The position numbers were made by a program, and so were the translations under genes. 64,000 nucleotides of DNA from Prorocentrum cordatum (Eukaryota): contig CAUYUJ010000227.1 in assembly GCA_963575745.1 (NCBI GenBank), forward strand, positions 1-64,000, in the 5' to 3' direction. Numbering within the stretch: position 1 is the first letter of the stretch; each line of letters begins with the position of its first letter. Below are positions 14,525 to 62,042 of this stretch, piece by piece. The notes under the pieces are model-generated. The model saw nothing but the letters and a program-made list of their open reading frames with translations. It was not told the origin of the DNA and did no database searches.

Positions 14525-14852
<328 letters not shown>

Positions 14853-14952
14853 NNNNNNNNNNNNNNNNNNNNNNNNNNNNNNNNNNNNNNNNNNNNNNNN
14901 NNNNNNNNNNNNNNNNNNNNNNNNNNNNNNNNNNNNNNNNNNNNNNNNNNNN
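14853..14952. other. Assembly gap (100 N)
   Basis: Run of N. Confidence 1.
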
Positions 14953-19557: not shown

Positions 19558-22218
19558 TACCTCGTAGAGCTCGTCGGCATCGATGAGCTAGAGGAATTCG
19601 GGCGCGGGGTGGAGCTAGTTGGCCCACCCGGCTGGGGCGGACAATGTGACAACTTTTGGGTGGTTTTGCTAATACCTCGTAGAGCTCTTCGGCATCGATG
19701 AGCTAGAGGAATTCCGGCGCGGGGTGGAGCTAGTTGGTCGACCCCACCAGAACGGACAATGTGGCAACTTTTCGGTGGTTTTGCGAATATTTGAAAGATA
19801 TTTGACCATTTATTTTGAGAAAGCAGATTTTTCGCATCTGTAGTGGGTTATGGCGCGTCCGCCAGTAAAATTTTCAGGTCCATAGATGCAGTATTACTAT
19901 CAAAACACTTGGCGGAACCGAGGTTGTATAAAAACAGAAAAACACGATTTTTCGATTTTTTCGTTTCTCGCCTCAGAAGCTTTCTCTATGTGTTCCGACG
20001 ATCGCTGTGCAAGAAAAGAGCTCTACGAGGTTCCCGGCGGTGACCAGGTTGACGGTTTACCGCCGGTTCCAGTATACCTCGTAGAGCTCTTCGGCAGCGA
20101 TGAGCTAGAGGAATTCCGACGCGGAGTAACTCGTAGAGCTTCCCTTAGCTAGTACCTCGTAGAGCTCTTCGCCGTCGATAAGCTAGAGGAATTCCGGCGC
20201 GGGGTGGAGCTAGTTGGCCGACCCGGCCTTAAGAGACAAAGTGATGATTTCGGGTCGGTTTTGCTAAGATTTGAAAGATATTTGACAATTCATTTTGAGA
20301 AACCATATTTTTCTCACGTATAGTGGATTATGACGCGGCTGCCAGTTAAATTATCAAGTCCGTGGCTGCAGTATTACTATCGAAAGACTTGCAGGAACCG
20401 ATTTTTGGGGAAACCGAGAATAACGTGATTTTTCGATTTTTCGGCTCTTGCTTCAGGAGCTATCTTGATGTCTTTCGAGGATCGATGTGCAAGAAAAGAG
20501 CTCTACGAGGTGCCCGGCGGTAACCTGGTTGACGGTTTACCGCCGGTTCCCAGTTATAGCTGGAAGCTAAGAGTAATTCCGGCGCGCTGGAGAGCTAGTT
20601 GGCAAGAAAAATCTCGACGGAACTTTTGATGACTTTTGGTCGGTTGAAAATTTGGTTCTCGAAATTTGACAATTCGTTAGAGCTCTAGTATTTTTTCCCG
20701 TGATATTCGATCTTATTCCCGCTCGCCATCTTGATCTCAGCTCGATCGGGTAACTTTGAAGGCCAAAAAGCACTCTGGCGGGATCGGCCGTTTCCAGTCA
20801 TCTTGATACGCGTTGTCGGTATTTTGTACTTAACTCGATCTGTAGGACAGCTACAGAGCTTGTAAGCACAGCTATCGTACTCAGAATCATCAGGCGCGTT
20901 TGCCTGTTCAATCCATAGGTCTGAACTCGGTCTGCTAGCCGAGCTAGGTCTGCAAACCTATTCGTATTATTCGAGTCAACCTGATACGCGTTGTCGGTAT
21001 GTTCTACTTAACTCGAGCTGTAGGGCAGCTACAGTGCTGGTAAGCACACCTATCGCACACAGAATCATCATGCGCGCTCGCCTGTTGAATCCATAGGTCT
21101 GAACTCGGTCTGCTAGCCGCGCTAGGTTCGCAAACCTATTCGTATTATTCGAGTCAACTTGATATGCGTTGTCGGTATTCTCTACTTATCTCGAGCTGTA
21201 GGCCAGCTACAGTGCTGGTAAGCACACCTATCACACTCAGAATGATCAGGTGCGTTCGCCTGTTGAATCCAGAGCTCTGAACTCGGTCTGCTGCGCGATC
21301 CAGAATCAAACTGTTCGTATTCTTCCAGTCATCTTGAGCTACTGTCGGCGTTCTGCACTCAACTCGGGCTGTAGGGGGGCTGCAGGGCGGTTAATTAATC
21401 ACAGGAATCGATTCGGAGACATCAGACGCGTCCGTCTGTCGCAGTCAGAGGTCCGAACTCTGTCTGATACTCGATGGGCTGAAAAACTATTCGTTCTCTG
21501 CATTTTTTGTCGACATTATATGTTGTCAGGAAGCTCTACGAGTCCCCCGGCGGTAACAAAGGTTGACGGTTTACCGCCGGCGCCCAGTGGAGCTAGTTGG
21601 CCGACCTGGCCTTAAGAGACAAAGTGGTGACTTTGGGTCGGTTTGCTAAGATTTGAAAGATATTCAACAATTCATTTTGAGAAACTAGATTTTTATCACG
21701 TGTAGTGGGTTATGACGCGTCTGCGAGTAAAATTTTCAGGTCCGTAGCTGCAATATTACTATCGAAACACTTGCAGGAACCGAATTGAGATGAAAACTGA
21801 AAAATCGTGATTTTTCGGATTTTTCGGCTCTCTCTTGAGAAGCTTCCTTGACGTGTTTCGAGAAGCGCTGGAACGAAAGAGCTCTACGAGGTGCCCGGCG
21901 GTAATCTGGTTGACGGTTTACCGCCGATTCCCAGTTTCAAAGATATTTGACAATTCATTTTGAGAAAGCAGATTTTTCGCACCTGTAGTGGGTTAAGACG
22001 CGTCTGCCAGTAAAATTTTTGAGGTCCGTAGGTGCAGTATTACAATCAAAACATTTGGGGGAACCGAAGTTGGAAAAAACAGAAAAACGTGATTTTTCGA
22101 TTTTTTCGTTTCTCACTCAAGAAGCTTACTCCCTGTGTTCTGAGAAGTGCGGTGTGAGAAAAGAGCTCTACGAGGATCCCTGCGGTAACCTGGTTGACGG
22201 TTCACCGCCGGTTGCCAG
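19558..22218 (+). mobile_element. Family B element hosting B 19673-20072 and B 20075-21934; the latter hosts A 20127-21587, which hosts B 20153-20553
   Basis: Each removal restores the consensus of the host copy. Confidence 0.8.
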
Positions 22219-25397: not shown

Positions 25398-26217
25398 TTG
25401 GGGTGGTTTTGCAAATATTTCAAAAAATATTTGACAATTGATTTTGAGAAAGCAGTTTTTTTGCATCTGTAAACGACTATGAGAGCCTCTGCTTAATATG
25501 AGCTCTCTAAGCGCACATTGATCGAAACACTTAGAGAAGCCAACTTCATCTCGACATGACAAACATACTGTTGAATTTCACGAGAAATGCCTTCAGAAGC
25601 TCTCTTTTTCGACTCTGAGCACTCTCACGCGTGGAAGGAGCTCTACGAGGTTCGCGATGGTGATCATGTTGACGGTTCATCGGCGGTACAAGTTGGACGC
25701 TACAAAAATTTCGCTCCTCTAAACGACTATGAGGGTCTTGCGTCAAAATACCTCGTAGAGCTCTGCGGCATCGATAAGCTAGAGGCATTCGGGCGCGGTG
25801 TGGAGCTAGTTCGCCGATCCGGCCCCGACGGAGAATGTGCGAACTTTGTGTCGCTTGGACGATCTTTCTAAGAGATTTGAACATTCGTTTTGAGAACCGG
25901 TATTTTCCGCACCCGTAGTGGGTTTTTGTCGCGTCCGCCGAGGTGCGTAGGCGTTGTATTACTATCTAACAACTTGGCGGAAGCGTCTTTGGATAGAAAT
26001 ATGAAAACGTGTTTTTTTCGAGTTTTTTGAGTCTCGCTGCAGACTCTTCCTAGATGTGCACTGGGAAGCGCCGTGCGATGAACGCGCTCTACGAGTGGCC
26101 CGGCGGTAACAATGATCAAAGGCAGTCCCGTTTTCGGCCAAGTGTAGGAGTTATATCACTCGGGTTCAGAGCATTCTCATTTATGGAAGTCAAGGTATTA
26201 GTTGGGACAGGGACTCC

Positions 26218-28158
26218 TTGCAGAGCCTGAATGTCTTTGAGGGAAATTGTCTTTACCAGATGACGTCACCCCAAAAGCCAGCCTCCGAAAGTTGGGTTGT
26301 TTGGAAGCCAGCTCGACTCAGAATTGCTAGACGGATGTTCTTTGAAGCAAAGTGCCAGAGTGCAGTGCAGAGAGTTCTTTATTCCTTGTGGCAGCTTGGA
26401 GCTGACATAGCATCATATTTTGGAGCTAATGTCGACAGCGGATATCAGATTCCTGAGTCGGAGCTGAGCCCAGGAATGGTCGCGGGCTCTCTAGTTACCA
26501 ATGGGATGGGGGAGGTCTCTTCAGTTACCAATGGGATGGGGGCTGTCTCTTCAGTTACTAGTGGGATGGGTGCAGTCTCTTCAGATATGAATGGGATGGG
26601 TGTGGTCTCTTCTGATATGCATGGGATGGTCTCTCCAGTTACCAGTGGGATGGATGTGGTCTCTTCAGTTACTGGTGGGATGGTGGGAGTCTCTTCAGTT
26701 ACCAGTGGGATGGGTGCTGTCTCTGATATGCATGGGATGGTCTCTCCAGTTACCAGTGGGATGGGTGTGGTCTCTTCAGTTACTAATGGGATGGTGGGAG
26801 TCTCTTCAGTTACCAGTGGGATGGGTGCTGTCTCTGCAGTTACTAATGGGATGGGCGCAGTCTCCTCAGATACGAATGGGATGGGCGCTGTCTCTTCAGA
26901 TATGCATGGGATGGTCTCTTCTGCTATGCCCTCTGATAGGGCCTCTTCTTCTCGAGATGTTGAAGTTCCCTGTGAGCGGGGGGGGCCTAGGGATTCCCCC
27001 AGGCCCCCCCCGAAACGTCGGAGGGTGGCTGTTCCTGGACCTGGACAACAGACGGTGTATCCTCGTGCGCATCGTGACGCACGCCGGCTTCTGATGTGCT
27101 GTACCCCGAGGTGGGAGGAGAAAAGGACACTGGAGTCAAAATATTGGCGTTCACAGTGGAAGTGGAAGGAGGCCTCGAAACTGACACGATTAGGCAGTAC
27201 TAAGGGGCAGGCGACGGGTGAACATCCTTGGTGTTTCATGTTCCAGACGATATTTCCCTCGTTTGTGAATCTGGAGGATCGGTGGTGGAGGGCGTGCTCT
27301 TTCTCTTACTCTGGCTTCGTTCAGTATTGCAGGCAGTTCCTGGAAGCTTGTACTTTGGGGTCTCTGTTTGACTTGTTTGTTGTCCGTGGAGGAACTGGAG
27401 GGAGAGGAGACTACATAAAGGAGAGGGGGGAGGAGATGTTGGCTCGTCCGTTGTCGGCGAAGGAGTCCGAGAAGCTGGCCCAGAGATTGGCCTCGAACAA
27501 TGAACAGGAGCCGACTTGGGATCTGAGTGATGATGGGATCGGTCTCGAGCTGACGGGCGATTCGCTTCTTATCTGTAACTGGATCAATGGTCTCTGGAAG
27601 GTTGAGGGAGGAGAAGGAGGAGATGGGGCTTCTTATCGTAGGCGGGTGGCAAATATTATTTCTCTTTTGGAAGAGTTGGAGGAGGAAGGAATACGACCCC
27701 CCTCATGGGGCAACGACTTCATTCGACACATATATCGAGAGAGTAACACAGTAGCTGATGAACTTACCCACTTAGCACGGGAAGGCCAGATATTCAGAGA
27801 GCTGTTCCACCACCATATCTTTCGTTCTGATGTCCGAGACAACTTTCGAGTTATTGGCCTCCGCGGATCCTTCGACGGCGGAGTGTGTGCCCAAGGTGTG
27901 GGCGTTGGCTGGTTTCTGCAGATTGGATATATTCCTCGATTCCATGACCCTTACCCTGACCCTGAGCATAGAGATAAGAGAGCTCGTGTAGTCTCCCTCT
28001 TCCCCCAAGCCTCCTCTCCTTGTCCAATCATATGGGAAATAGTAGGGCGTTGTGCACAGGCACTCCCCTCCCATAGCAGTATCACTGACGCTGAGCTTTC
28101 GGGTCTCGAGGGCCTCTTGCGGGCCGCAGTCCAGGTGGCCCAAGACCTCCAGCTGTAG
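26218..28158 (+). CDS. C-terminal part of a LINE ORF: RT-thumb-like region, 10-aa repeats, basic PPPKRRRV motif, permuted RNase H-like domain (646 aa; frame open from 26116)
   Basis: Uninterrupted ORF with RNase H1 motifs LELTGDS, RHIYRESNTVAD, RGSFDGG and ITDAEL. No RT catalytic YxDD motif is present, consistent with truncation. Confidence 0.75.
   Translation: MQSLNVFEGNCLYQMTSPQKPASESWVVWKPARLRIARRMFFEAKCQSAVQRVLYSLWQLGADIASYFGANVDSGYQIPESELSPGMVAGSLVTNGMGEVSSVTNGMGAVSSVTSGMGAVSSDMNGMGVVSSDMHGMVSPVTSGMDVVSSVTGGMVGVSSVTSGMGAVSDMHGMVSPVTSGMGVVSSVTNGMVGVSSVTSGMGAVSAVTNGMGAVSSDTNGMGAVSSDMHGMVSSAMPSDRASSSRDVEVPCERGGPRDSPRPPPKRRRVAVPGPGQQTVYPRAHRDARRLLMCCTPRWEEKRTLESKYWRSQWKWKEASKLTRLGSTKGQATGEHPWCFMFQTIFPSFVNLEDRWWRACSFSYSGFVQYCRQFLEACTLGSLFDLFVVRGGTGGRGDYIKERGEEMLARPLSAKESEKLAQRLASNNEQEPTWDLSDDGIGLELTGDSLLICNWINGLWKVEGGEGGDGASYRRRVANIISLLEELEEEGIRPPSWGNDFIRHIYRESNTVADELTHLAREGQIFRELFHHHIFRSDVRDNFRVIGLRGSFDGGVCAQGVGVGWFLQIGYIPRFHDPYPDPEHRDKRARVVSLFPQASSPCPIIWEIVGRCAQALPSHSSITDAELSGLEGLLRAAVQVAQDLQL
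26490..26925 (+). repeat. In-frame ~30-bp coding minisatellite (GMGAVSSVTN-like) within the LINE ORF
   Basis: Repeated gtctcttcagttacca(a/g)tgggatggg units; length variants are multiples of 3. Confidence 0.9.
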
Positions 28159-31100
28159 GCACTTAACGGGCGCTGGGGCGCTCGGTGCCTGGTCAGCCTC
28201 CCCAAAAAAAAACAATGATATTCGATCTAATTCCCGCTCGCCCTCTTGATCTGAGCTCGATCGGGTACCTTTTACTGCCAAAAAGCAGGCAGGCGGAATC
28301 GGCCGTTCCGAGTCATCTTGTCACGCGGTGTCGGTTTTCTCAATATAACTCGAGCTTCAGGGCAGCTACAGGGCCAGTGGGCACAGCTACAGGGCCAGTG
28401 GGCCAGTGGGCACAGCTGATCGGTTGAAAATTTTGTTTTCAAAATTCAACAATTCGTTAGAGATTTAGCAGTTTTTCCTGTGATATTCGATCTTATTCCC
28501 GCTCGCCATCTCCATCTCAGCTCGATCGGGTACCTTTTACTGCCAAAAAGCGTCCCGGCGGGATCGGTCGTTTCGGGTCATCTCGTCACGCGGTGACGGT
28601 TTTCTCAAGATAACTCGAACTTCAGAACAGCTACAGAGCTGGTAAGCACAGCTAATCGATCCAGAATGATCAGGCGCGTTCGCCTGTCGAACCCAGAGGT
28701 CTGAAATCGGTCTGCTAGCCGAGCTAGATTTAAAAACCTATTCGTATTATCCGAGTCATCTTCACAGACGCTCTCGGTATTTTGCTAAACTCGAGCTGTA
28801 GGGCAGCTACAGAGCTAGTCGCAGAAATCGATTGGGAATCATTAGGCTCTGAACTCGCCCTGCTGCCCGAGCTAGAATCGCGAAACTATTTCTATTGTTC
28901 GAATCATCTGAAGAGGTACTGTCGCGTTCTAAACTTCAGGCTACAGTGCTGCTGGGGACAGCAATCGATTTGGAGACATCAGGCGCGTCCGCCGGTGGAA
29001 GCCAGAGCTCAGAACTCGGCCTGCTGCCTGAACTCGGTCCGCGAATCTGTTCGTATTGTTCGAGTCATCCTGAAAGATGCTATCGGTTTTCTGCACTAAA
29101 CTCGAGCTGTAGGGGAGCTGCAGGGCTGGTAATCACAGGAATCGATTCGGAGACATCAGACGCGTCCGCCTGTCGCATTCAGAGGTCTGAACTCGGTCTG
29201 ATACTCGAGCTCGGTTTAGGAAACTATTCGTTTTGTTCGAGTTATCTTCAGAGGTGCTGTTGATTAGCGCACGTAACTCGGGCTGTAGCAGAGCTACAGA
29301 TCTCGTGCACAAGACAATCCAGAAGCATCAGGGGGCGTTCGGCTGTTGCATTGAGAGGTTCGAAATCGCTTGGGCTGAAAAACTATTCGTTCTCTGCAAT
29401 TTATTTTCTACATTATATATAGTCAGGAAGCTCTACGAGTCACCCGGCGGTAAGAAAGGTTGACGGTTTACCGCCGGCGCCCAGTAAAGGCTTTCTAGGC
29501 GCAGATTTACCATTGAAACACTTGGAGGAACCAACTGAGGGCTGGCGGTAAACCGTCAACCTTTGTTACCGCTGGGAGACTCGTAGATCCTGAGAATATA
29601 GAATATGAAAAATAAATTGCAGAGAACGAATAATTTTTCGCCCGAGCGATTTCATACCTCTCGATGCAACAACCCAACGTCCTCTGATGCTTCTGGATTC
29701 TCTTCTGTACGAACTCTGTAGCTCTGCTACAGCCCGAATTACGTGCGCTAATCAACAGCACCTCTGAAGGTGACTCAAACAAACGAATAGTTTCGTAAAC
29801 CCAGCTCGAGTAGCATACCGACCTCTGAATGCGACAGACGGACGCGTCTGATGTCTCCGAATTGATTTCTGTGATAACCAGCCCTGGAGCTCCCCTAGAG
29901 CCCGAGTTAAGTGCAGAAAACCGACAACATCTTTCAGGATGACTCGAACTAGTTCGGGCAGCAGACCGAGTTCCGAGCTCTGGATTCGACAGACGGACGC
30001 GCTTGATGTCTCCAAATCGATTGCTGTCGCCACCAGCACTGTAGCCCGCCTACAGCCTGAGTTAAGTGCAGGAAGCGACAGTACCTCTCAGATGACTCGA
30101 ACAAGTTTCGCGATCCTAGCTCGGGCAGCAGGGCAGGGCGAGTTCAGAGCTCTCAGTTCAACAGACGAACGGACCCGATGATTCCCAATCAATTTCTGTC
30201 CTATCAGACCGAGTTCAGACCTCTGGGTTCAACAGGCGAACGCACCTGATCATTCTGAATCGATAAGCTGTGCCTACCAGCTCTGTAGCTGTCCTGAAGC
30301 TCGAGTTATCTTGAGAAAACCGATAGCACGTATCATGACTCGAAACAGCTGATCCCGCCTGCCTGCTTTTTGGCAGTAAAAGGTACCCCCTGGAATTACT
30401 CTTAGCTTCCAGCAATAACTTGCTAAGGGAAGCTCTACGAGTTACTTCATTTCGACATGAAAAAAATCACTGTTCAATTTCTCGAGACCTCCAGAGGCTC
30501 TCTCTTCTGACTCTGAGCTCTCTCACGCGTGAAAGGAGCTCTACGAGGTTCCCTGCGGTGACCAGGTTGACGGTTCAACGCCGGCGCCAGTCTAGTTGTT
30601 TTTTTTTCATGTCGACATAAAGATGGTTCCGCCAAGTGTCCTGACAGTAAGAGAGCTCCTAGAGAGCTCATATTTAAACAGAGAGGCTCTCGTAGTCGTT
30701 TACAAGTGCGAAAAATCTGCTTTCTGAAAATAAATGGTCAAATCTCTTTCAAATACTGGGCGCTGGCGGTAAACCGTCAGCCTTTGTTACCGCCCGGGGA
30801 CTCGTAGAGCTTCCTGGCAATTTATAATTTCGAGAAAGATTGCAGAGAGCGAATAGTTTTTCAGCCCAAGCGATTTCAGACCTCTCGATGCAACAGCCAA
30901 ACGCCCCCCAATGCTTCTGGATTGTCTCTGTTGCTCTCTTACAGCCGAGTTACGTGCGTTAATCGAGAGCACCTCTCAAGATGAATCGAACAAAATCAAT
31001 CGTTTGGCAAACCCAGCTCGAGTATCAGACCGAGTTCAGACCTCTGAATGCGACAGGCTGACGCGTCTGATGCCTTCGCATCGATTCCTCTCATTACCAG

Positions 31101-42114: not shown

Positions 42115-44445
42115 AAGATTGTTTAGACAAATCAGCATAACAGAGCTCTTGTGATTTCGAGGAGAGGTCTGTTGATGTACAACATAGAGTGGTATACACG
42201 TCGGGCTGCGTTGGCTGAAACCCTTCGCATACACGGCAACCGCGCACAAGCATCGTCGGGCAGAAGGCTCAGGGCAGGTGGAGACTCGATTGGACAGCGG
42301 AGCTGGCAACATCCTTACATCATAGCATTCTGTCCCCTGTGGTGGGAGGCGGTCTCGGGATCTTATCGTGCATTCTTGGAGGGGTGGCAAACCTTTCTGT
42401 GTTCATAACTCGTAGAGCTTCCCTTAGCTAGTTGCTGGAAGCTTAAGAGTAATTCCGGCGCGCTGGAGAGCTAGTTGGCAAGAAAAATCTCGACGGACCC
42501 TTTGCTGACTTTTGGTCGGTTAAAAATTTTGTTCTCGAAATTGAACAATTCGTTTGAGCTGTAGTATTTTTTCTGACCATATTCGATCTTATTCCCGCTC
42601 GCCATCTTAATCTCCGCTCGATCGGGTATATATTTCTGCAAAAAACATCGCGGCGGGATCGGCTGTTTCGAGTCATCTTGATACGCCTTGTCGGTATTTT
42701 GTACTAAACTCGAGCTGTAGGGCAGCTACAGAGCTGATTATTACAGAAATCGATTGCAAATCATCAGGCGCGTTCGTCTCTTCCATCTAGAGGTCTCAAC
42801 TCGGTCTGCTGCCCGAGCTAGGTTCGTGAAGCTGTTCGTGTTGTTGGAGTCATCTTGAGAGGTGCTGACAGTTTTCTGAGCTTAACTCTGGCTGTAGGGG
42901 GGCTACAGGGCTCGTGCTCACAGGATTCGATTCAGAGACATCAGGCGCGTCTGTCTGCCGCATCCAGAGCTCGGAACTCGGTGTGCTGCCCGAGCTAGGT
43001 CGCAAAACTGTTCGTATTCGTCGAGTCATCTTGAGAGGTGCTGTCCGTTTTCTGCACTTAACTCGAGCTGTAAGGGGGCTGCAGGGCTGGTAATCACTGG
43101 AATCGATTCGGAGATATCAGTCGCGTCCACCTGTCGCATTCAGAGCCCTGAACTCGGCCTGCTGCCCGAGCTAGGTCCGACTATTCGTATTGTTCGAGTC
43201 ATCTTCAGAGGTGCTGTCGATTTTCTGCACTTAACTCGGGGTGTAAGGGGGCTGTAGGGCTGGTAATCACAGCAATCGATTCGAAGACATCAGGCGCGCC
43301 CGCCTGTTGTATTCAGATGTCTGAACTCGGTCTGATACTCGAGCCAGATTTGCGAAACTATTTGTATTGTTCGAGTGATTTTGAGAGGTGCTGTCGACTT
43401 TTGCACGTAACTCGGGCTGTAGGATAGCTACGGAGCTCGGGCGCACAGAAAACGATCCAGAAGCATGAGGGGCGTTTGGCTGTTGCATCGAGAGGTCTGA
43501 AATTGTTTCGGATAAAAAACTATGCGTTCTCTGCAATTTTTCTCGACATTATATATGCTCAGGAAGCTCTACGAGTCCCCCGGCGGTAAGGAAGGTTGAC
43601 GGTTTACCGCCGGCGCCCAGTATAATAAAACATAGATATTTTATTACTTTGTGCAGAGCTGGAAGGGGATGCCGAGCCATTTCGCACCGCGAGTAGAGAT
43701 AGCAGACGTTGAGAGACCCGACACCAAAGGAGCAGGAAGAACTTGCCATGCGTTTGGCACGAATTGCCGAAAGACAAACCGTGAGGGACTTGGTCAGCCC
43801 TGGGATCGAAATTGAACTAAAGGGGGACAGCTTATTAATAAACTCATGGCTCAATGGGCGTTGGCGTTGTGACAACAAACTGTACTTGCAGTGAGTGGGG
43901 GGATGTATTGACTCAATGGAACAAGCCGTTGGGGGCTGGGGAGCACGTAGTTCTGGCCTGGGGATGGATATCTACATACATGACTAAAGGGTAGGTAGCA
44001 CGCGCGCGGACCAGCTAACCCACTTGGCCCGTGAGGGCCGCACATTCTATAACACGTTCAAGTTTCAATATGGTTTCGAGGACTTCCTTCAACCGATCGC
44101 CATCCGTGGGGCCTACGACGGAGGCGTGTGCAGCAAAGGAACGGGATGTGGTTTTTGGCTGCATATAGGCTTCGCCAACCGCCGATATGACCAATATTCT
44201 TATCATCCGTATTCTGTCTCCCCTTTTCCTCCTTCCTCCTCCTTCCATGTGTCATCCTCCACGCCTCTCGTTTGGAGGGGCGTTGCCGTAGCCGCGTGGA
44301 CTCTTGAAGAAGGGGCCGCAATCACTTTTGCCGAACTCTCTGCTGCTGAGGCACTCTCTAGTGCAGCCCGCATTTTTTTTTGCGGCAGCTTCACGCCTCT
44401 AGCTGAACACAGCTGGACCACAGGTGCGAAAACCCACAAAAAACA
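42115..44445 (+). pseudogene. Second, diverged and degenerate copy of the RNase H LINE, split by a Helitron-like element at 42406-43620
   Basis: Peptides RRGLLM...QHPY...WWEAVSGSY...F, KEQEELAMRLA...IELKGDSLLINSWLNGRW, ADQLTHLAREG, RGAYDGGVC and ITFAELS match the 26218 ORF in the same order. It has stops and frameshifts and an A-rich end at ~44438-44445. Confidence 0.8.
42406..43620 (+). mobile_element. Family A element inserted in the LINE pseudogene
   Basis: Both termini present; flanks gttca^tataat (A^T), no TSD. Confidence 0.85.
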
Positions 44446-45674
44446 TGGTTGACGGTTTACCGCACGCTCCAGTTTTGCCAGGATTCGGATGCGAAGGACG
44501 ACATGGTCCACAGCGCACTGGAACGCAGCACAGTTCAACACGGCACGGCGCAGTACAGTTCATCACAGCACGGATCAATCGCAATTTTTGCCAGCTTCGT
44601 GGCCCTGGGGGCGCACATCGCTGATTTTCGAAATGTCTTGGCCGTCGGAGTGCGGCTCCCTCGGGTGAGCCGAAACGTATGCAGTTCGTCCCAGTCTTGG
44701 TTCGGCTTGCCTTGATTTGATCAGGGTCGGCTCTCGTTGTTTCGTTTCTTTTCGTCGTGTTTCGATCCGTTCATTGTCGGTGCGTTTCGCCACGGTTCGG
44801 ATCCTCCCCCTCTTGGTTCGCACCGTTTTTGAATGGAATCGGATTTTTATCTCGAGCTGGTTGATCGTCCCGCTCGTTTCGATCGCTAATAGTTTTGGGC
44901 CAGCTATGCGTTCAGCCAGCTCTTGTGTCAGATCGAGGACAGTTTTGTCAGGATTCGGATGCCAAGGACGACGTGGCCCACAACGCAATATAGAGCACAA
45001 CAGTTCAGCGCGGCATGACACACCTCAATCCAGCCCAGCACGGCACAGCAGAGCCCCTGGACGGGTACTTCACTGCCGATACCCTCAGCATTGCAGTGTC
45101 CCGTTGTCCGGCCAGGTGTCTTCAACGCGTTCCCACGCTTCTTTCCACACACACACACGCACACTCCTTTCCGGGTCCGTGGGGATTCTGCTGCTTCTTG
45201 GGGCAGACTAGGGGCCCTTTGGGGCCGACTTGAGGGGGCCGTCTTGAGGCCGTCCTGAGGGTCTCTCCGCTCCTCGCGGGGCTCTTTGGCCTCCCCTGGG
45301 GCGCTCCAAGGGCTGCCGCGGGGGTTTAGAGGCCACCGCACAGGGAGAGCGTCGGCACCTCTGCGATACACACCTGCCGTGCCCTTGCTGGGGCCCTGCT
45401 GGGGTGCTTCCCTGCCGTGGCCCCCGTTCGGCCGCCACTCAGGGGCAGCATTCGGGGGAGACAGGCTCAGGGGCCTCAGGTTCGAGGTTCGAGGTTCGAG
45501 GTCTTCGGGGCGATGTGTTGGCTCTCTGGGGTGTCCTTGCTAGCCTCGGGATGCCTTCCAGCGGCCGCGCCTCGCCGAGAGCGATCTGGGTGCCCCAGGA
45601 TCGCTCCGAACGGCCGCGGGAGGCCCGAGTTGCGGCCCGAGAACAGGTCGGAAAGAGCGTGTTCTACCGCTGCT

Positions 45675-46740
45675 GGCGGAAAACCGGGGGGGGTCACTAC
45701 CGGTTCGAACCCCCTCCCCCCCGCGGAAAACCAGGGGGGGTCACTGCCGGTTCGAACCCCTCCCCCCCCCCCAGTCCATCATGAAAAGGGGGGGGTCACC
45801 TCCGGTTCGAACCCCCCCCCACCCCCCCTCCTCGAAAACCGGGGGGGTCACTGCCGGTTCGAACTCTCCCCCCCCCCCCGAAAACCGGGGTGGGGGTGCG
45901 GACAGTGGTGGGGGCGGTGGTGGTGGGGACAGTGGTGAGGGGACAGCGGGACAATGGTGGGGACAGTGGGACAGTGGTGGGGATGGTAGTGGTGGGGACA
46001 GTGGTGAGGACAATGGTGGGAACAGTGGGGACAGTGGGACAGTGGTGGGGACGGTGGTGGTGGGGACAGTGGTGTGGGGACAGTGGGAATGTGGTGGAAA
46101 CATGGGACAGTGGAGGGTACAGTGGTGGTGGGGACAGTGGTGAAGGCGGCGGCGAGGACGGCGGTGGGACAATGGGACAGAGGTACAGTGGGGACAGTGG
46201 TGGGGACAGTCGGGACAGTGGTGGGAACAGTGGGACAGCTCAGTGGGACAGCGGAGGAGTCAGTGGGACAGTGGGGACAGTGGGGATAGTCGGGCAGTGG
46301 TTGGGGCTGTGGAGAAAGTGGGGAGAGTGGAACCGTGGTGGGAACAGTGGTGGGACAGTGGGGACAGTGCGACAGTGGTGGGGGCACTGGTGGGGATAGT
46401 AGGGAGGGTGGTGGAACCAGTTGGGACAGTGGTGGTGAGGACAGTGTTGCTGGGAACACCAGTGGGGGATGTGGTGCGGACGGTGGTAGCGACCGGGAGT
46501 CGTTTGCCGGTGGTGAGGGGGGGGGGGGAGGGGTTCGAACTGGTAGTGACCCCCTTCCGGTTTTCGAGGGAATGGGGGGGCCGGTTTTCAAGGGGTGGGG
46601 GTGGGGGGGGGGGGTTAGGGGAGGGGGGGGGGTTTTGCCAGGGGGAGGGGAGGGGGGGGGAATCCAGCAGGGGGAGTGGGGATTTTCGGAGGGGGGGGAC
46701 CCCCGGGTTCCGGAGGAAAATGGGGGGGAATTTTTCACAG
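45675..46740. repeat. G-rich GGGACAGTGGTG minisatellite flanked by GGGGTCACTGCCGGTTCGAACCCC repeats (four direct copies left, one inverted copy right)
   Basis: Direct copies at 45685-45880; inverted copy at ~46518-46570. Confidence 0.85.
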
Positions 46741-48504: not shown

Positions 48505-50587
48505 ATGGCGATGGTATTCCCCGCGAACCAAGCTATCGTCGTCGGCGGCGGCTTGGCAGGCGTGTCCGCAGCCAACACGGTTCTCGAGTGCGGGGGCAAG
48601 GTCGTTTTGGTAGACAAGTCCTCTTTTTGCGGCGGCAACTCGACAAAGGCGACCAGCGGCATCAATGGTGCGGAGACGAAGACGCAGAAGGCCAAGGGCA
48701 TCCAGGATTCCCGCGATCTCTTCACCAACGACACCTTGAAGGGTGGGGCCAAGCGTCCGGAGCTCGCTAAGATCCTTTGCTGGAACAGTGGCGCAGACGT
48801 GGACTGGCTTGTCGACAAGTTCGACCTGGACCTGTCTCTTGTGGCGCGCCTCGGTGGCCACTCGGCGCCGCGCACTCACCGTGGCGCGGAGCGCTTCCCC
48901 GGCATGACCATTACCTACGCCCTGATCCAGATGCTTGAGAAGGCTCTGGAGGGAAAGCTAGACAGAGACACAACAAAACTACGATTGCCGATAAAATATG
49001 GGGAACTCGCTGGGAAATTGAGGGGAAGATGAAACGTCAGAAGATATGACAAACTATGGGGAATTCGGGAAATTGCGTCTCTTTGCTCGTGTCTCCCTGG
49101 GCCCTGTAAAGGTTGCAGAGAAGACGGACCGTGCCCGCATCATCACCAAAGCCTGCGCCCACAAGCTGCTGACCAACACGTCGGGGGGCAAGCTCTCCGT
49201 AGTGGGCCTGGTCTATTCCAAGAACGGTGAGGATCTCGAAGAAGGAAAACATGAGTTTAATCCATAAGCTTTAGGAGGTCCGCCAAGATGTCTTGGCATT
49301 GTGCTGGGCCTCCCCCCCGGGCGCGCGGAGCGCGCCAGGGGCGGCTCCCGAGGCGCCGCCAGGGGGTCCAGCGCCGATCCAAGAAATCCGCGCGGAGCTC
49401 CGAACATTTGGTACGATGCCGTTACTTCTTTGTCCAGGATTTCAAGGAGTTCGGCCCCGTGATCTTGGCCAGCGGTGGCTTCGGCGCCGACTTCACCACG
49501 AACTCGCTGCTGGCGCAGTACCGCCCCGACCTGCTCCATCTGCCTACCACCAACGGCGAGCACTGCACTGGCGACGGAATCAAGATGGGCGAGGCAATCG
49601 GCGCGCGGACCATCGACCTGGAGTGGGTCCAGGTGCACCCGACGGGGCTGGTGAAGCCAGACGACCCCGATGCGAAGATCAAGTTCCTGGCTGCAGAGGC
49701 CCTGCGCGGCGTGGGCGGGCTGGTGTTCGACGCCAACGGCAAGCGCTTCGCGAACGAGCTGGGCCGCCGGGACTACGTGACCGGCGAGATGTGGAAGAAC
49801 AAGCCGCCCTTCCGCCTCTGCCTGAACAAGGCGGCCTCCGACGAGATCAGCTGGCACTCGGGGGCGAAACGCATATCCGTACCCGCGGCCTCGCGGGCTG
49901 GGATACGGGGCGCTTTTTCGCGGATGCCCGCGCAGAACTTATGCGTACGACCGCGTGTCCGCGGGATCGCGCCCCAGAATCCAGACCGCGAGGGCGCGGA
50001 TGCGGACATGTTCGCCGCTCGTGAGGCACTGCAAGCATTACACTGGCCGCGGCGTCATGAAGTTCTACGAGAATGGCGAGGCCCTCGCCAAGGACATGGG
50101 GATCCCGGTGTCTGTGCTCGAGGAGACCACTGAGCTGCACTACCAGGCGGCGAAAAAGACGGAGAAGGACCCGGATGGCGGCTCCTGGCCTGCCTACCCG
50201 TCCGGCAAGTCTTGGGACGAGCCCAGCGGCAAGACGGGCTCCGGCAAGAAGTTCTACCACAACATCATCCCGGGCTCCGCCGTGAAGACCCAGCCGTTCT
50301 ACGTCGCCATCATCACCCCCGTCATCCACTACTGCATGGGCGGCCTGGAGGTGGACGTCGACTCCGCGGTGCTGGACACGAAGAGCGGCAAGGCGATCCC
50401 AGGCCTGTACGCCGCGGGCGAGGTGGCTGGCGGCATCCATGGCAACAACCGCCTGGGCGGGAACTCCCTGTTGGACTGCGTCGTCTTCGGCCGCGTCGCT
50501 GCCAAGGCCGCGTGCAAGTACACGTTCGGTGCGGACGGCAAGTACCAGCTGTGCCCCGTCCCGAAGCAGATCAAGGATCTCGCGTAG
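48505..50587 (+). CDS. osm1: Soluble FAD-dependent fumarate reductase (Osm1/Frd1, flavocytochrome c flavin-domain family), copy 1; exons 48505-48942, 49112-49231, 49438-49853, 50026-50587 (511 aa)
   Basis: Spliced translation is open and has the family motifs GGGLAG (FAD), GGNSTKATSGING, RLGGHSAPRTH, ASGGF, QVHPT, AAEALRG, RFANELGRRD, HYCMGG and GEVAGGIHGNNRLGGNSL. Codons are strongly GC3-biased. Exon joins restore frame (LEK|VAEK, NGE|DFKE, SW|HCK). An alternative ATG is at 48511. Confidence 0.93.
48943..49111 (+). other. Intron 1 of copy 1, GC-AG (169 nt)
   Basis: AAG|gctctg...gtaaag|GTT; removal restores frame; AAGG occurs at both junctions. Confidence 0.85.
49232..49437 (+). other. Intron 2 of copy 1, GA-AG (206 nt), MITE-derived
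   Basis: GAG|gatctc...gtccag|GAT; AGGAT occurs at both junctions; the body is the inverted-repeat element also found outside the gene. Confidence 0.85.
49854..50025 (+). other. Intron 3 of copy 1, GC-AG (172 nt), long fold-back
   Basis: TG|gcactc...cgtgag|GCAC; GGCACT occurs at both junctions; ~65-70 nt imperfect inverted arms. Confidence 0.85.
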
Positions 50588-57089: not shown

Positions 57090-57522
57090 GCATGATGATG
57101 CTGATGCTGATGCTGATGCTGATTCTGCTGCTGATGATGAGGATGATGGTGATGCTGAGGCTGATGATGATGACGATGATGATGACGACGACGACAACGA
57201 GGATGATGCTGATGCTGCTGATGATGATGATGCTGATGGCGATGGTGCTGATCGTGATGATGGTGATGTTGATGATGCTGCTGCTGATGATGCTGATTTT
57301 CATGATGCTGATGGTGATGCTGATGATGCTGATGTTACTGACGATGCTGCTAACGATGACAATGATGATGCTGATGGTGGTGATGAACGTGATCATGATG
57401 ATGATGGCAATGACGTTGACGACGACGACGACAACGACGATGACGATGATGCTGATGCTGCTGATGATGATGATGAAGGTTATGCAGATGATGATGCGGA
57501 TTCAGCTGATGATGATGACGGC

Positions 57523-57559
<37 letters not shown>

Positions 57560-57752
57560 ATGATGATGATGATGATGTTGATGATGATGAACGTATTGAT
57601 GATGTTGCTGACGATGCTGATGATGGTGATTATGATGCTGATGCTGATGCTGCTGATGGTGATGCTGATGATGATGATGATTGTGATGCTGATGGTATGA
57701 TGGTGATGGTGATGCTGTTGCTGCTGATGATGATGATGGCGATTATTTTGCA

Positions 57753-57783
<31 letters not shown>

Positions 57784-57983
57784 CTGATGATGATGGTGCT
57801 GATGATGATGATGCTGATGACGATGACGATGACGATGATGCTGATGATGGTGGTGACGATGATGGTGCTGATGCTGATGCTGATGCTGATGCTGATGATA
57901 CTGATGCTGCTGCTGCTGAGGATGATGATGATTCTGATGATTACTATGATGATGCTGATGATGATGATGATGGTGGTGGTGGT

Positions 57984-58048
<65 letters not shown>

Positions 58049-58147
58049 TGATGATGATGATGATGATGACGATGATGATGATTATGATGATGGTTCTGAT
58101 GATGCTGATGATGACGACGATGATGATGATGATGATGATGATGATGC

Positions 58148-58197
<50 letters not shown>
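57090..58197 (+). repeat. (GAT/GCT/GAC)n degenerate trinucleotide tract
   Basis: Direct reading. Confidence 0.95.
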
Positions 58198-59508
58198 CAA
58201 GCCTGTCGCCCAGTGCCGTGTTCGGGGCAGGCCAGGTGGTGTTTCTTCGGTAAGTAGCCGAGTCGGGAATGATCAGCGGAATAATTTCTGATGATGTCTC
58301 GGGTGAAACGAACCCCTGTTTCATATAATTTGCAGAGGACGTCTAGCGAAACGCTTGCTTTCGTTTGTTGAGGATGTCTCGTGCGAGTCGCTGTTCTTCA
58401 GACTTTGTTCAGGATGTCTCATGCGAAGCGCTCGTTTTGTAGTGTTAAGAAGCCTGGACGCCACAGGACGCTCCAGGAGGCTTTGGGGCGCGGGGGCGCA
58501 CCCATCGGATCCTTGGAGCTGTCGCATTTGGAGGGGCCCCACGCGCGGGGGGAGGAGGAGGAGGAGGAGGAGGAGGAGGAGGAGGAGGAGGAGGAGGAGG
58601 AGGAGGAGGAGGAGGCGGAGGCCTGAACTTCTCGGATCCTCTTGGCGAGCTACGCGTTCAGCCAGCTCGTTCGCAGTACCCCCTGGGGCCGCGGCGGGGC
58701 GACCGCAGGAGGTGCTGGCGGGACATCCGTGGGACAACCGCGGGACAAGCACGGGGTAGCAGAAGAACAGCCACAGGACAAGCACAGGACAACTGCGGGC
58801 CAACCACAGGGCTGCTTCGGGGCGACCCCGGGGCACCGTCGAGGACCCCAAACATGGAAGCATGTTTGCCGACGCAGCCTCGAGCTGGAGCTGGTCGTCG
58901 CTTTTCGCCCACTCGCGCAGCTTCGCCTCTCCCGCACGCGCGGCACGAGACGGGCGAGCCGAAGCCGATTTCCGAATGTGGTCATTCCGTTCGCACTCCG
59001 AAGCGCTAAGTCGAAGAGGTAGCAATTCAATGCAATGGTGCACAAATCGATTCAAAGTAACGCAAGACAAAACAACACTATGCACAGCATCGATCTAGGG
59101 GCTTTCCGCAAGAAACAGGGGCCTGTCGCCGATCTATCGGCAATGTATCGCCGATTCAAGGTCGATGTTTCCCCTCCGAACCAGTCCCCCCCCCCACATC
59201 GTTCCCCCGCAGCACCGGTGCGCCTTCTCCTCTTCTCCCCCTTCCCTCGTGGCCTGCGCCCCTCTTCCGCTTCCCTGTCCGTCCTCGCTGCGCGTCAGCC
59301 CCTGGATCCGTCGAGACAAGAGTGAAGAGCGCCGCCCGATCACGCGCCGCGACGAGGAGAACGAGGACGGGGGGAAGGAGTAAGCAGGAGGAGGACGTGG
59401 CGATCAGCCATCCGTTGCCAGCTCTGCTACAGTGGATTTTTTCGCTGGCTGTAGCCCTCCTGTGGCAGAGTTTTGCGTCTCGCTGCCACCCAGATCTTGG
59501 TCGGAGCC

Positions 59509-62042
59509 ATGGCGATGGTATTCCCCGCGAACCAAGCTATCGTCGTCGGTGGCGGCTTGGCAGGCGTGTCCGCAGCCAACACGGTTCTCGAGTGCGGGGG
59601 CAAGGTCGTCTTGGTAGACAAGTCCTCTTTTTGCGGCGGCAACTCGACAAAGGCGACCAGCGGCATCAATGGTGCGGAGACGAAGACGCAGAAGGCCAAG
59701 GGCATCCAGGATTCCCGCGATCTCTTCACCAACGACACCTTGAAGGGTGGGGCCAAGCGTCCGGAGCTCGCTAAGATCCTTTGCTGGAACAGTGGCGCAG
59801 ACGTGGACTGGCTTGTCGACAAGTTCGACCTGGACCTGTCTCTTGTGGCGCGCCTCGGTGGCCACTCGGCGCCGCGCACTCACCGTGGCGCGGAGCGCTT
59901 TCCCGGCATGACCATTACCTACGCCCTGATCCAGATGCTTGAGAAGGCTCTGGAGGGAAAGCTAGACACAGACACAACAAAACTACGACTCCCGATCACA
60001 TATGGGAAACTCGCAGGGAAATTGAGGGGAAGACGAAACGTCAGAAGATACATCAGCCAACGTTGACTCCAAATAGATAGGAGGACAGGAGGAGGACGAG
60101 AGGAGGATGGCAGGAGGACGAAAGGAGGACGGGAGCAGGACGGGAGGAGGACCGGAGGAGCAAAATCAAGCAAACACAAGCGAGCAAGCGGAAGCAAGCA
60201 AGCGCAAGCGAGCAATAACAAGCAAGCAAGAGCCATCGATCAAGTGCAAGCAAGAAAAGGCAAGCAAGAGCAAGCAAGCAAGAGCAAGCACGCAAGCAAG
60301 AGAGCAAACAAGAGCAAGCATAGGACTCGCCGTTGGAAATAGCTGGGGGGTTCCATTGGAAATAACGGGGGTTGCCATTGAAAAAAGGTGGGGTGAGGGG
60401 GCGCCATTGGAAATAAGGGGGGCTGCCATTGGAAAAAAGGGGATTGGGTGCTAAAGATCAATTAATTGAGCTAGGACTCCTATAGGGCAAACCTGTTTGG
60501 ATAATGACAAACTATGGGGAATTCGGGAAATTGTGTCTTTTTGCTTGTGTCTCCCTGGGCCCTGTAAAGGTTGCAGAGAAGACTGACCGTGCCCGCATCA
60601 TCACCAAAGCCTGCGCCCACAAGCTGCTGACCAACACGTCGGGGGGCAAGCTCTCCGTAGTGGGCCTGATCTATTCCAAGAACGGTGAGGATCTCGAAGA
60701 CGGAACAAATGAGTTTAATCCATAAGCTTTAGGAGGTCCGCCAAGATGTCTTGGAATTGTGCTGGGCCCCCCTGGCGCGCGGAGCGCGCCAGGGGCGGCT
60801 CTGGAGGCGCCGCCAGGGGGTCCATCGCCGATTCAAGAAATCCGCGCGGAGCTCTGAACGTTTAGTGCGATGCCGTTACTTCTTTGTCCAGGATTTCAAG
60901 GAGTTCGGCCCCGTGATCTTGGCCAGCGGTGGCTTCGGCGCCGACTTCACCACGAACTCGCTGCTGGCGCAGTACCGCCCCGACCTGCTCCATCTGCCTA
61001 CCACCAACGGCGAGCACTGCACTGGCGACGGAATCAAGATGGGCGAGGCAATCGGCGCGCGGACCATCGACCTGGAGTGGGTCCAGGTGCACCCGACGGG
61101 GCTGGTGAAGCCAGACGACCCCGATGCGAAGATCAAGTTCCTGGCTGCAGAGGCCCTGCGCGGCGTGGGCGGGCTGGTGTTCGACGCCAACGGCAAGCGC
61201 TTCGCGAACGAGCTGGGCCGCCGGGACTACGTGACCGGCGAGATGTGGAAGAACAAGCCGCCCTTCCGCCTCTGCCTGAACAAGGCGGCCTCCGACGAGA
61301 TCAGCTGGCACTCGGGGGCGAAACGCATATCCGTACCCGCGGCCTCGCGGGCTGGGGATACGGGGCGCTTTTTCGCGGATGCCCGCGCAGAACTTATGCG
61401 TGCGACCGCGTGTCCGCGGGATCGCGCCCCAGAATCCAGACCGCGAGGGCGCGGATGCGGACATGTTCGCCGCTCGTGAGGCACTGCAAGCATTACACTG
61501 GCCGCGGCGTCATGAAGTTCTACGAGAATGGCGAGGCCCTCGCCAAGGACATGGGGATCCCGGTGTCTGTGCTCGAGGAGACCACTGAGCTGCACTACCA
61601 GGCGGCAAAAAAGACGGAGAAGGACCCGGATGGCGGCTCCTGGCCTGCCTACCCGTCCGGCAAGTCTTGGGACGAGCCCAGTGGCAAGACGGGCTCCGGC
61701 AAGAAGTTCTACCACAACATCATCCCGGGCTCCGCCGTGAAGACCCAGCCGTTCTACGTCGCCATCATCACCCCCGTCATCCACTACTGCATGGGCGGCC
61801 TGGAGGTGGACGTCGACTCCGCGGTGCTGGACACGAAGAGCGGCAAGGCGATCCCGGGCCTGTACGCCGCGGGCGAGGTGGCTGGCGGCATCCATGGCAA
61901 CAACCGCCTGGGCGGGAACTCCCTGTTGGACTGCGTCGTCTTCGGCCGCGTCGCTGCCAAGGCCGCGTGCAAGTACACGTTCGGTGCGGACGGCAAGTAC
62001 CAGCTGTGCCCCGTCCCGAAGCAGATCAAGGATCTCGCGTAG
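59509..62042 (+). CDS. osm1: Soluble FAD-dependent fumarate reductase, copy 2; exons 59509-59946, 60570-60689, 60892-61307, 61481-62042 (511 aa)
   Basis: Same exon lengths and motifs as copy 1. By eye there is one amino-acid difference (GLVYS/GLIYS) and about seven synonymous differences. Confidence 0.93.
59947..60569 (+). other. Intron 1 of copy 2, GC-AG (623 nt), with a 454-bp segment absent from copy 1
   Basis: Same ends as copy 1 intron 1; extra sequence at 60051-60504. Confidence 0.85.
60690..60891 (+). other. Intron 2 of copy 2, GA-AG (202 nt)
   Basis: Homologous to 49232-49437. Confidence 0.85.
61308..61480 (+). other. Intron 3 of copy 2, GC-AG (173 nt)
   Basis: Homologous to 49854-50025. 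Confidence 0.85.

Follow-up and report, generated by a model that had tools for sequence, protein, structure and literature searches.

We report on a stretch of 64,000 nucleotides from Prorocentrum cordatum (Eukaryota; GenBank assembly GCA_963575745.1, contig CAUYUJ010000227.1, positions 1 to 64,000 of the forward strand; the whole of this stretch is hereafter referred to as the window). It carries a fragment of a long interspersed nuclear element (LINE), i.e. of a retrotransposon without long terminal repeats (non-LTR), whose open reading frame (ORF) ends in a domain where the motifs of ribonuclease H (RNase H) come in swapped order, with the normally N-terminal half last. An earlier analysis of the sequence alone, here called the original prediction, had proposed that this domain is a circularly permuted RNase H. 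Our data show that the circular permutation is real and family-wide in a clade of non-LTR retrotransposons. Moreover, we consider it probable that the domain, which ends the second ORF (ORF2) of a 5'-truncated element of the apurinic-endonuclease type, is a circularly permuted RNase H of the archaeal type (type 1, RVT_3-like).

The LINE fragment and its C-terminal domain

The features of the fragment, referred to as copy 1, are listed below; residue numbers are those of P0001 (window:27307-28155), the last 283 residues of the frame, and RT stands for reverse transcriptase.

26109..26116, no strand: left copy of the 8-bp direct repeat ACAATGAT, a putative target-site duplication, at the insert junction
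26116..28158, + strand: open frame (680 codons and a stop) that encodes the C-terminal portion of ORF2, with post-RT region, linker and probable permuted RNase H
26117..28211, + strand: 5'-truncated non-LTR retrotransposon fragment (copy 1), colinear with residues 834-1446 of the relative P0007 and with the local dispersed repeat on both sides
26482..26914, + strand: in-frame 30-bp minisatellite, in the linker between RT and RNase H
27457..27504, + strand: conserved lead-in helix, residues 51-66 (AKESEKLAQRLA...), from the AlphaFold2 model (H51-66) and the family alignment
27517..27801, + strand: first half, the counterpart of the C-terminal half in a canonical RNase H (strand 4 including GDS, then helices B and D, strand 5 and helix E), from profile matches, VIA-align and conservation
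27802..27840, + strand: linker between helix E, the former C-terminus, and strand 1, the former N-terminus, with a short strand (E163-166) and helices (H168-171, H174-179)
27841..28155, + strand: second half, the counterpart of the N-terminal half in a canonical RNase H (strand 1 including FDGG, strands 2 and 3, and helix A including TDAEL), from profile matches, the second-half model and conservation
27937..28029, + strand: variable insertion between strands 2 and 3, residues ~211-241, modelled in part with low confidence (below 50 at residues 224-235)
28156..28158, + strand: stop codon TAG, directly 3' of helix A
28159..28212, + strand: short 3' untranslated tail with an A9 run (28204-28212) at its end
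28212..28219, no strand: right copy of the direct repeat ACAATGAT, at the insert junction

The 680-amino acid (aa) frame matches P0007 (1455 aa) with E 3e-110 and 36% identity. No RT was found upstream of the frame in the window, and copy 1 is thus 5'-truncated. This truncation, the A9 run and the flanking ACAATGAT are hallmarks of target-primed reverse transcription. The 8-mer occurs three times in the 64 kb, twice at the insert junctions, and homology to the dispersed repeat extends up to 26110 in the left flank and starts again at 28215 in the right flank. In other units of the repeat array these flanks are ~650 bp apart, and the pre-insertion site was only partly reconstructed. The element ends 56 bases past the stop codon, leaving no space for an additional half-domain. 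The window copy is a dead fragment that lacks endonuclease and polymerase, and its RNase H frame is still intact. The minisatellite in the linker (~15 copies, 73% match) encodes GMGAVSSVTN-like repeats and is also open on the opposite strand; it is absent from P0003, a relative with 66% identity.

The 5' junction of copy 1 lies within the loop of an inverted repeat (CGGCGGTAA ... TTTACCGCCG, a potential hairpin, at 26097-26110), right after GGTAAC; homologous repeat units are present at ~20028-20062, 20508-20542 and 21888-21922.

That the domain is LINE-borne, as first proposed, agrees with the colinearity with P0007, in which the RT domain RVT_1 scores above its cut-off, and with the A9 tail and the 8-bp flanking repeat. 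Five relatives are full-length: P0007, P0011 (1306 aa), P0046 (1299 aa), P0152 (1279 aa) and P0155 (1491 aa). RVT_1 (cut-off 29.6 bits) reached 32.3 bits in P0007, 34.3 in P0011 and 41.8 in P0155, as well as 50.1 in P0027. Matches to the endonuclease profile Exo_endo_phos stayed below the cut-off of 24.5 bits, with P0007 residues 20-86 on profile positions 2-79 (13.8 bits) and P0155 residues 197-253 on positions 175-225 (19.3 bits). An SDH tripeptide, presumably the last motif of the endonuclease, is located at residues 240-282 in four of the five. A search with P0007 against solved structures gave no match.

A canonical RNase H runs from strands 1-3 through helix A, strand 4, helices B and D and strand 5 to helix E. 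In the window protein the order is instead strand 4, helices B/D, strand 5, helix E, a linker of ~15-25 residues, strands 1-3, helix A and stop. Specifically, the first half contains LELTGDS, with D85 at 27559-27561, and HIYRESNTVAD, with H141, R144, E145, N147 and D151 (the last at 27757-27759), while the second contains RGSFDGG, with D190 at 27874-27876, and ITDAEL, with E263 at 28093-28095. The motifs, their order and their positions in this ORF had all been given in the original prediction and are borne out by the frame 26116..28158. In the family profile the lead-in helix corresponds to the last part of helix A plus the loop that precedes strand 4 in the RNase HI structure 3u3g, and in the family alignment the insertion between strands 2 and 3 is missing from P0005 and P0049.

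Half order and conservation among relatives

A phmmer search with P0001 against 1.84 billion representatives (at most 50% identity among them) gave 130 relatives at E<=1e-3, 44 at <=1e-10 and 7 at <=1e-30. Two profile hidden Markov models (HMMs), one for each half (GDS..AD and DGG..AE), were generated from a 46-row alignment (A1) and run over 134 proteins, 46 of which were the rows used to build them. At least one half was significant in 133 of the 134 proteins; both were found in 98, the first only in 30 and the second only in 5, and these single-half relatives are mostly short fragments. GDS..AD precedes DGG..AE in every one of the 98 proteins with both halves, and the reverse order was not seen in any. 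The gap between the two half-HMM matches has a median of 14 residues (range -3 to 46), the median tail past helix A is 11 residues, and the full-length proteins extend 9 to 18 residues past the end of the domain.

Neither half was detected a second time at significance (i-Evalue <=0.001) in any of the 134 proteins, the sole apparent double being one C-type half matched in two pieces in P0059, a 79-aa fragment. The original prediction had named a full-length relative with a DG/AE half upstream of GDS, or with a GDS half after AE, as the finding that would speak against it; no such relative is present. Circular permutations usually arise by tandem duplication, which is the first step, followed by trimming of both ends. 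The half-HMMs and profile-profile comparison (hhalign) gave no trace of a lost half from such a route, and for a relic of the N-terminal-type half upstream of GDS the hhalign probability was 0.15%. To judge from sequence, the family thus has what characterises a natural circular permutation: one copy per half, each homologous to the matching half of the parent, in swapped order.

The window is highly repetitive and has a gap of 100 N at 14853-14952, which might point to the swapped order being an artefact of local rearrangement, mis-assembly or read-through of tandem copies. Such an origin would have to account for the same order in all 98 relatives, which come from independent assemblies and include the full-length ORF2s of 1279-1491 aa with the domain at their extreme C-terminus, and for the defined 3' end of the window copy (A9 run and direct repeat) 56 bases past the stop. 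We give it practically no chance, and the search for relatives together with the half-HMM order rules it out. The permutation is accordingly a trait of the family and not a one-off rearrangement or assembly error, as had been argued from the two copies in the window.

The second copy, which like the first is inside the dispersed-repeat landscape, is located downstream:

43637..44452, + strand: copy 2 of the domain, halves in the same order as in copy 1, from tblastn and, for AITFAEL, the frame 43988..44452

The tblastn alignment covers 43637-44197 against ORF residues 418-613 (38% identity, 75/197; E 2e-28). The motifs IELKGDS, ADQLTHLAREG, RGAYDGG and AITFAEL come in this order, so the claim that a diverged second copy keeps the arrangement is upheld by the alignment and the AITFAEL frame together. 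Four in-frame stops within the aligned stretch make copy 2 a pseudogene. It is flanked on both sides by GGTTGACGGTTTACCGC (~43591-43607 and ~44447-44463), which could represent a long, old target duplication or two adjacent repeat units.

Each half was separately traced to RNase H. Searched against solved structures, the A1 family profile matched RNase HI of LC11 (LC11-RNase H1, 3u3g, E 7.7e-07), Halobacterium (4e19, 1.4e-06) and Sulfolobus tokodaii (3aly and 2ehg, ~2.5e-05) and the N-terminal domain of Mycobacterium tuberculosis Rv2228c (3hst, 3.6e-04). A1 positions 36-131 align with the C-terminal half of the RNase HI chains (residues 52-137 of the 3u3g chain), and positions 151-183 (or 154-221) with their N-terminal strands. 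The segment R-E-x-N-x-x-A-D aligns with PRE..N..AD of the S. tokodaii enzyme (2ehg/3aly).

Pfam RVT_3 was matched at E<=0.5 by 46 of 93 relatives. For 42 of these 46 the best stretch is on profile positions ~53-123 and at the GDS..AD part, and for the other four (P0083, P0093, P0127 and P0132) it is on positions 2-62 and downstream of that part. The RVT_3 cut-off (21.6 bits) was exceeded by six of the 93 (P0043, P0068, P0079, P0093, P0108 and P0127), always with half of the profile; P0127 reached 28.4 bits and P0093 21.8. For PF00075 (RNase_H), P0043 matched on profile positions 66-140 and P0067 on 6-56. NCBIfam gave half-domain matches only, far below threshold, to haloarchaeal RNase HI, and in the Protein Atlas the nearest clusters are RVT_3/RNase_H with scores <=0.90, which is a lead only. 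The two half-matches in swapped order that the original prediction expected from a profile search were thus seen both with the A1 profile and with Pfam RVT_3/RNase_H. Since each half separately matches its own half of RNase H, and since the order is shared throughout the family, the swapped order goes beyond a chance arrangement of short motifs. A profile search of a 5.8-billion set for a deeper alignment returned only 4 proteins, and mean-field coupling analysis of 69 sequences (effective number 67) gave gap artefacts only.

The four catalytic carboxylates map via the profile alignments to the RNase H positions in strand 1 (D190), helix A (E263), after strand 4 (D85) and in helix E (D151). 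Among representatives with at most 50% mutual identity they are conserved in 102 of 102 (D190), 84 of 85 (E263), 98 of 103 (D85) and 115 of 117 (D151) sequences, and family-wide counts therefore agree with the proposal that all four acidic residues are retained. Of the neighbouring positions, S86 is conserved in 97/103, G191 in 103/103, G201 in 95/102, E145 in 112/119, N147 in 117/118 and A150 in 117/118. The arginine typical of archaeal-type RNase H (aRNH) corresponds to R144 (115/119), and H141, three residues earlier, is conserved as well (100/118). That residues of both halves are conserved jointly is what one composite active site would predict, and at the level of sequence it argues for a working enzyme.

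Predicted fold and candidate active site

The AlphaFold2 model of P0001 on A1 is one compact domain with a mean predicted local distance difference test (pLDDT) of 85.6, a predicted template modelling score (pTM) of 0.77 and 193 of 283 residues at 90 or above. Helices were predicted at residues 51-66, 87-93, 107-126, 148-158 and 259-282 and strands at 78-84, 139-141, 180-194, 197-210 and 242-253, and these are the elements of RNase H in permuted order. Only residues 27-43 and the insertion at 224-235 have low confidence.

Structural comparison was done for the whole model and for its parts. With VIA-align the whole model gave a best Z of 5.2, to RlmH-type proteins, and the RNase H chains (Z 3.2-3.5) were aligned to model residues 67-164 only. 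Since a sequential aligner is unable to span both permuted halves, this whole-model comparison neither supports nor refutes the fold. The first half was matched to the last parts of RNase H chains, i.e. 3u3g (Z 3.5, root mean square deviation (rmsd) 4.7 Å, 82 aligned residues), 4e19 (Z 3.4) and 3aly (Z 3.2). The second half was also modelled alone (window:27823-28155, alignment A2; pLDDT 84.8, pTM 0.73), and its best hits among the matches listed were residues 1-69 of 3u3g (Z 4.6, rmsd 2.5 Å, 67 aligned), the initial part of the domain in 4e19 (Z 4.6, rmsd 2.7 Å, 26% identity, 65 aligned) and, at Z 4.1, residues 1-70 of 3aly. Of the 50 matches listed for this half, 11 bear RNase H in the title, and in each of these the alignment covers the domain's first 60-70 residues. 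These model-based matches support the mapping of the second half to the N-terminal half of RNase H, without proving it.

To see the halves as separate chains, residues 44-172 and 173-283 were docked together with two Mg ions using ESMFold2 without alignment. The docking score was 0.77 compared with 0.24 for the best control; 51 of 78 solved complexes attained that mark, as did 2 of 108 mismatched pairs, which are rough counts with a small molecule present. Contact agreement across runs was at least 43% and the partner pLDDT 51-56. The most confident contacts are those of S86 and L89 with E263 and of helix D (114-124) with helix A (264-275), and D85, N147 and D151 are in the interface. We take the S86-E263 and helix D/helix A contacts to be the canonical core packing of RNase H; given this likeness, the docking result may rest on similarity to solved RNase H structures.

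Several results weigh against a permuted RNase H. With Foldseek, the whole model versus PDB gave a best E of 1.7e-03, to PelC, at TM scores of 0.23-0.36 and with no RNase H, and for the second half nothing was found at E<=0.001, with RNase H rows at E 1.3-2.0. All VIA-align Z values are below 5.3, where according to the tool a Z below 8 may reflect only a common arrangement, and unrelated folds score as high as the RNase H rows (formyltransferases in the case of the second half). In the profile searches each match of the N-terminal-type half is weak by itself (i-Evalue 46 to 1.2e+03, conditional E 2.6e-04 to 7e-03). The window protein itself reaches 13.6 bits for RVT_3, below the 21.6-bit cut-off, and Pfam gave nothing above cut-off for the whole 680-aa protein. 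Finally, the interface residues that the docking places with confidence do not include strand 1 (182-193, with D190), and the docking puts strand 4 against strand 2 (83/84 with 202/203), at a partner pLDDT in the fifties and with no alignment. In the canonical 3-2-1-4-5 sheet strand 1 is between strands 4 and 2. With strand 1 and D190 not confidently placed, the docking is no proof of a four-residue site.

The uncertain position of strand 1 and a predicted four-carboxylate geometry leave some room for two tandem, incomplete RNase H-like modules that stem from a duplicated domain, with the first module having lost its front and the second its back, and that would share no active site and serve only as a nucleic-acid-binding or structural tail. 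A precedent exists in retroviruses and Tat elements, for which the relevant parts of Ustyantsev et al. 2015 (PMC4408406) describe a duplicated RNase H of which one copy then decayed. Yet the catalytic residues and S86, N147 and G191 are 95-100% conserved, which is hard to explain unless the halves cooperate. Moreover, AlphaFold2 packs the halves into one confident domain, they dock well above the best control with E263 touching S86, and no leftover of the missing halves was detectable with the half-HMMs or hhalign. We therefore regard two tandem modules as very unlikely.

The success of the split-chain docking makes it physically conceivable that the halves complement each other in trans, in a domain-swapped ORF2 dimer with an active site only in the dimer. 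The linker between helix E and strand 1 is, however, modelled within one monomeric domain with pLDDT >=90 at residues 161-210. No sign of dimerisation was met, though no search was aimed at it, and such a dimer appears very unlikely to us.

For a single permuted RNase H domain, which we prefer, we propose that the two halves would reassemble into the usual five-stranded sheet, and that D190, E263, D85 and D151 would form one two-metal site. By analogy with non-LTR elements that carry an RNase H, the domain may degrade the RNA strand in the RNA:DNA hybrid that the upstream RT synthesises during target-primed reverse transcription. The permutation would place the chain termini in the loop that connects helix A with strand 4; the linker from the RT side would consequently enter at strand 4 via the conserved lead-in helix, and the protein would end with helix A.

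Surrounding sequence and comparison with known systems

Arrays and scattered copies of a ~176-178 bp repeat, in both orientations and with 75-89% match, are present between ~14971 and 43437, and both LINE fragments are inside this repeat landscape. The 100-N assembly gap comes directly after a (TAC)n microsatellite of ~109 copies (14525-14850). Further repeats include C/G-rich tandem repeats of 47-107 bp with GGTTCGAACC cores (45676-45895), GGGGACAGTGGTGG-type repeats (45900-46411) and an imperfect (ATG)n tract of 1.1 kb and 368 copies (57092-58197). Two tandem gene copies ~10 kb apart, at 49261-50584 (+) and 59455-62039 (+), carry pieces of Pfam FAD_binding_2 of the fumarate reductase / succinate dehydrogenase flavoprotein type (E 1e-19 to 1e-23). 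That different frames hold the pieces suggests introns; for the upstream copy, none of the frames scanned contained the first part of the domain. An Rfam scan of the window gave no match.

Few folds have been studied as thoroughly as RNase H in enzymology, in protein folding and in work on retroelements. Our data tip the balance somewhat in favour of this being the first natural, catalytically competent circular permutation of its catalytic domain, fixed in a diverse non-LTR clade (at least 130 clusters at 50% identity) and missed by standard domain and fold searches. The original prediction knew of no description of such a domain. A full-text literature search, for which most subscription journals and the Repbase reports were outside the scope, likewise found no natural permuted RNase H, so that an earlier description is still possible; in the parts of PMC5408684, PMC13524379 and PMC10830420 where the word occurs, "permuted" refers to a scaffold, to label shuffling and to the RT thumb, respectively.

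As the window copy is a dead fragment, the value of the finding is in the family and not at this locus. Relatives give half-domain, mostly sub-threshold Pfam matches and Foldseek gives nothing, so that surveys of the presence or absence of RNase H in LINE clades would miss the family. If our reading holds, such elements have so far been scored as being without RNase H, and the way in which the nuclease is tethered to the RT is changed. It would also represent a third route by which retroelements have remodelled RNase H, after acquisition and duplication. A natural permutant whose new termini fall between helix A and strand 4 would, in addition, provide a test case for connectivity versus folding and could be of use in engineering.

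The closest cellular counterpart is the archaeal-type RNase HI, to which the best sequence matches and, for each half, the best structural matches were obtained, and which has the same catalytic residues. Unlike the permuted domain, cellular RNase HI is free-standing or differently fused and has the canonical order. No single alignment spans both halves, and whole-domain fold searches therefore miss the relationship. Among retroelements, the dual RNase H of retroviruses and Tat/Ty3 LTR elements is likewise a restructured RNase H, as far as it is covered in the parts of PMC4408406 that deal with it. There, two complete folds are present, one of them decayed to a connection domain, whereas the family described here has one copy per half and no detectable relic.

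The most similar elements are found in plants and oomycetes. According to the passages on these elements in Ustyantsev et al. 2017 (PMC5348765), aRNH (Pfam RVT_3, PF13456) ends ORF2 in plant Ta11-type L1 and in oomycete L1/Utopia, has an arginine instead of a histidine as its hallmark, is preceded by a CCHC motif in plant and oomycete L1, and is carried in Repbase by retrotransposons of plants and oomycetes only. As far as these passages allow the comparison, the present family resembles them in having a probable archaeal-kind type 1 RNase H, with R144 as the hallmark arginine, at the very end of a non-LTR ORF2 with an RT and a putative N-terminal endonuclease (the latter, here, from sub-threshold matches). 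It differs in that a pattern scan of the five full-length relatives gave no CCHC motif upstream of the domain, with one match in P0011 inside the RNase H. Above all, the aRNH of plants and oomycetes, as it is presented there, has the canonical order, while the halves are swapped in every member with both halves in the family reported here.

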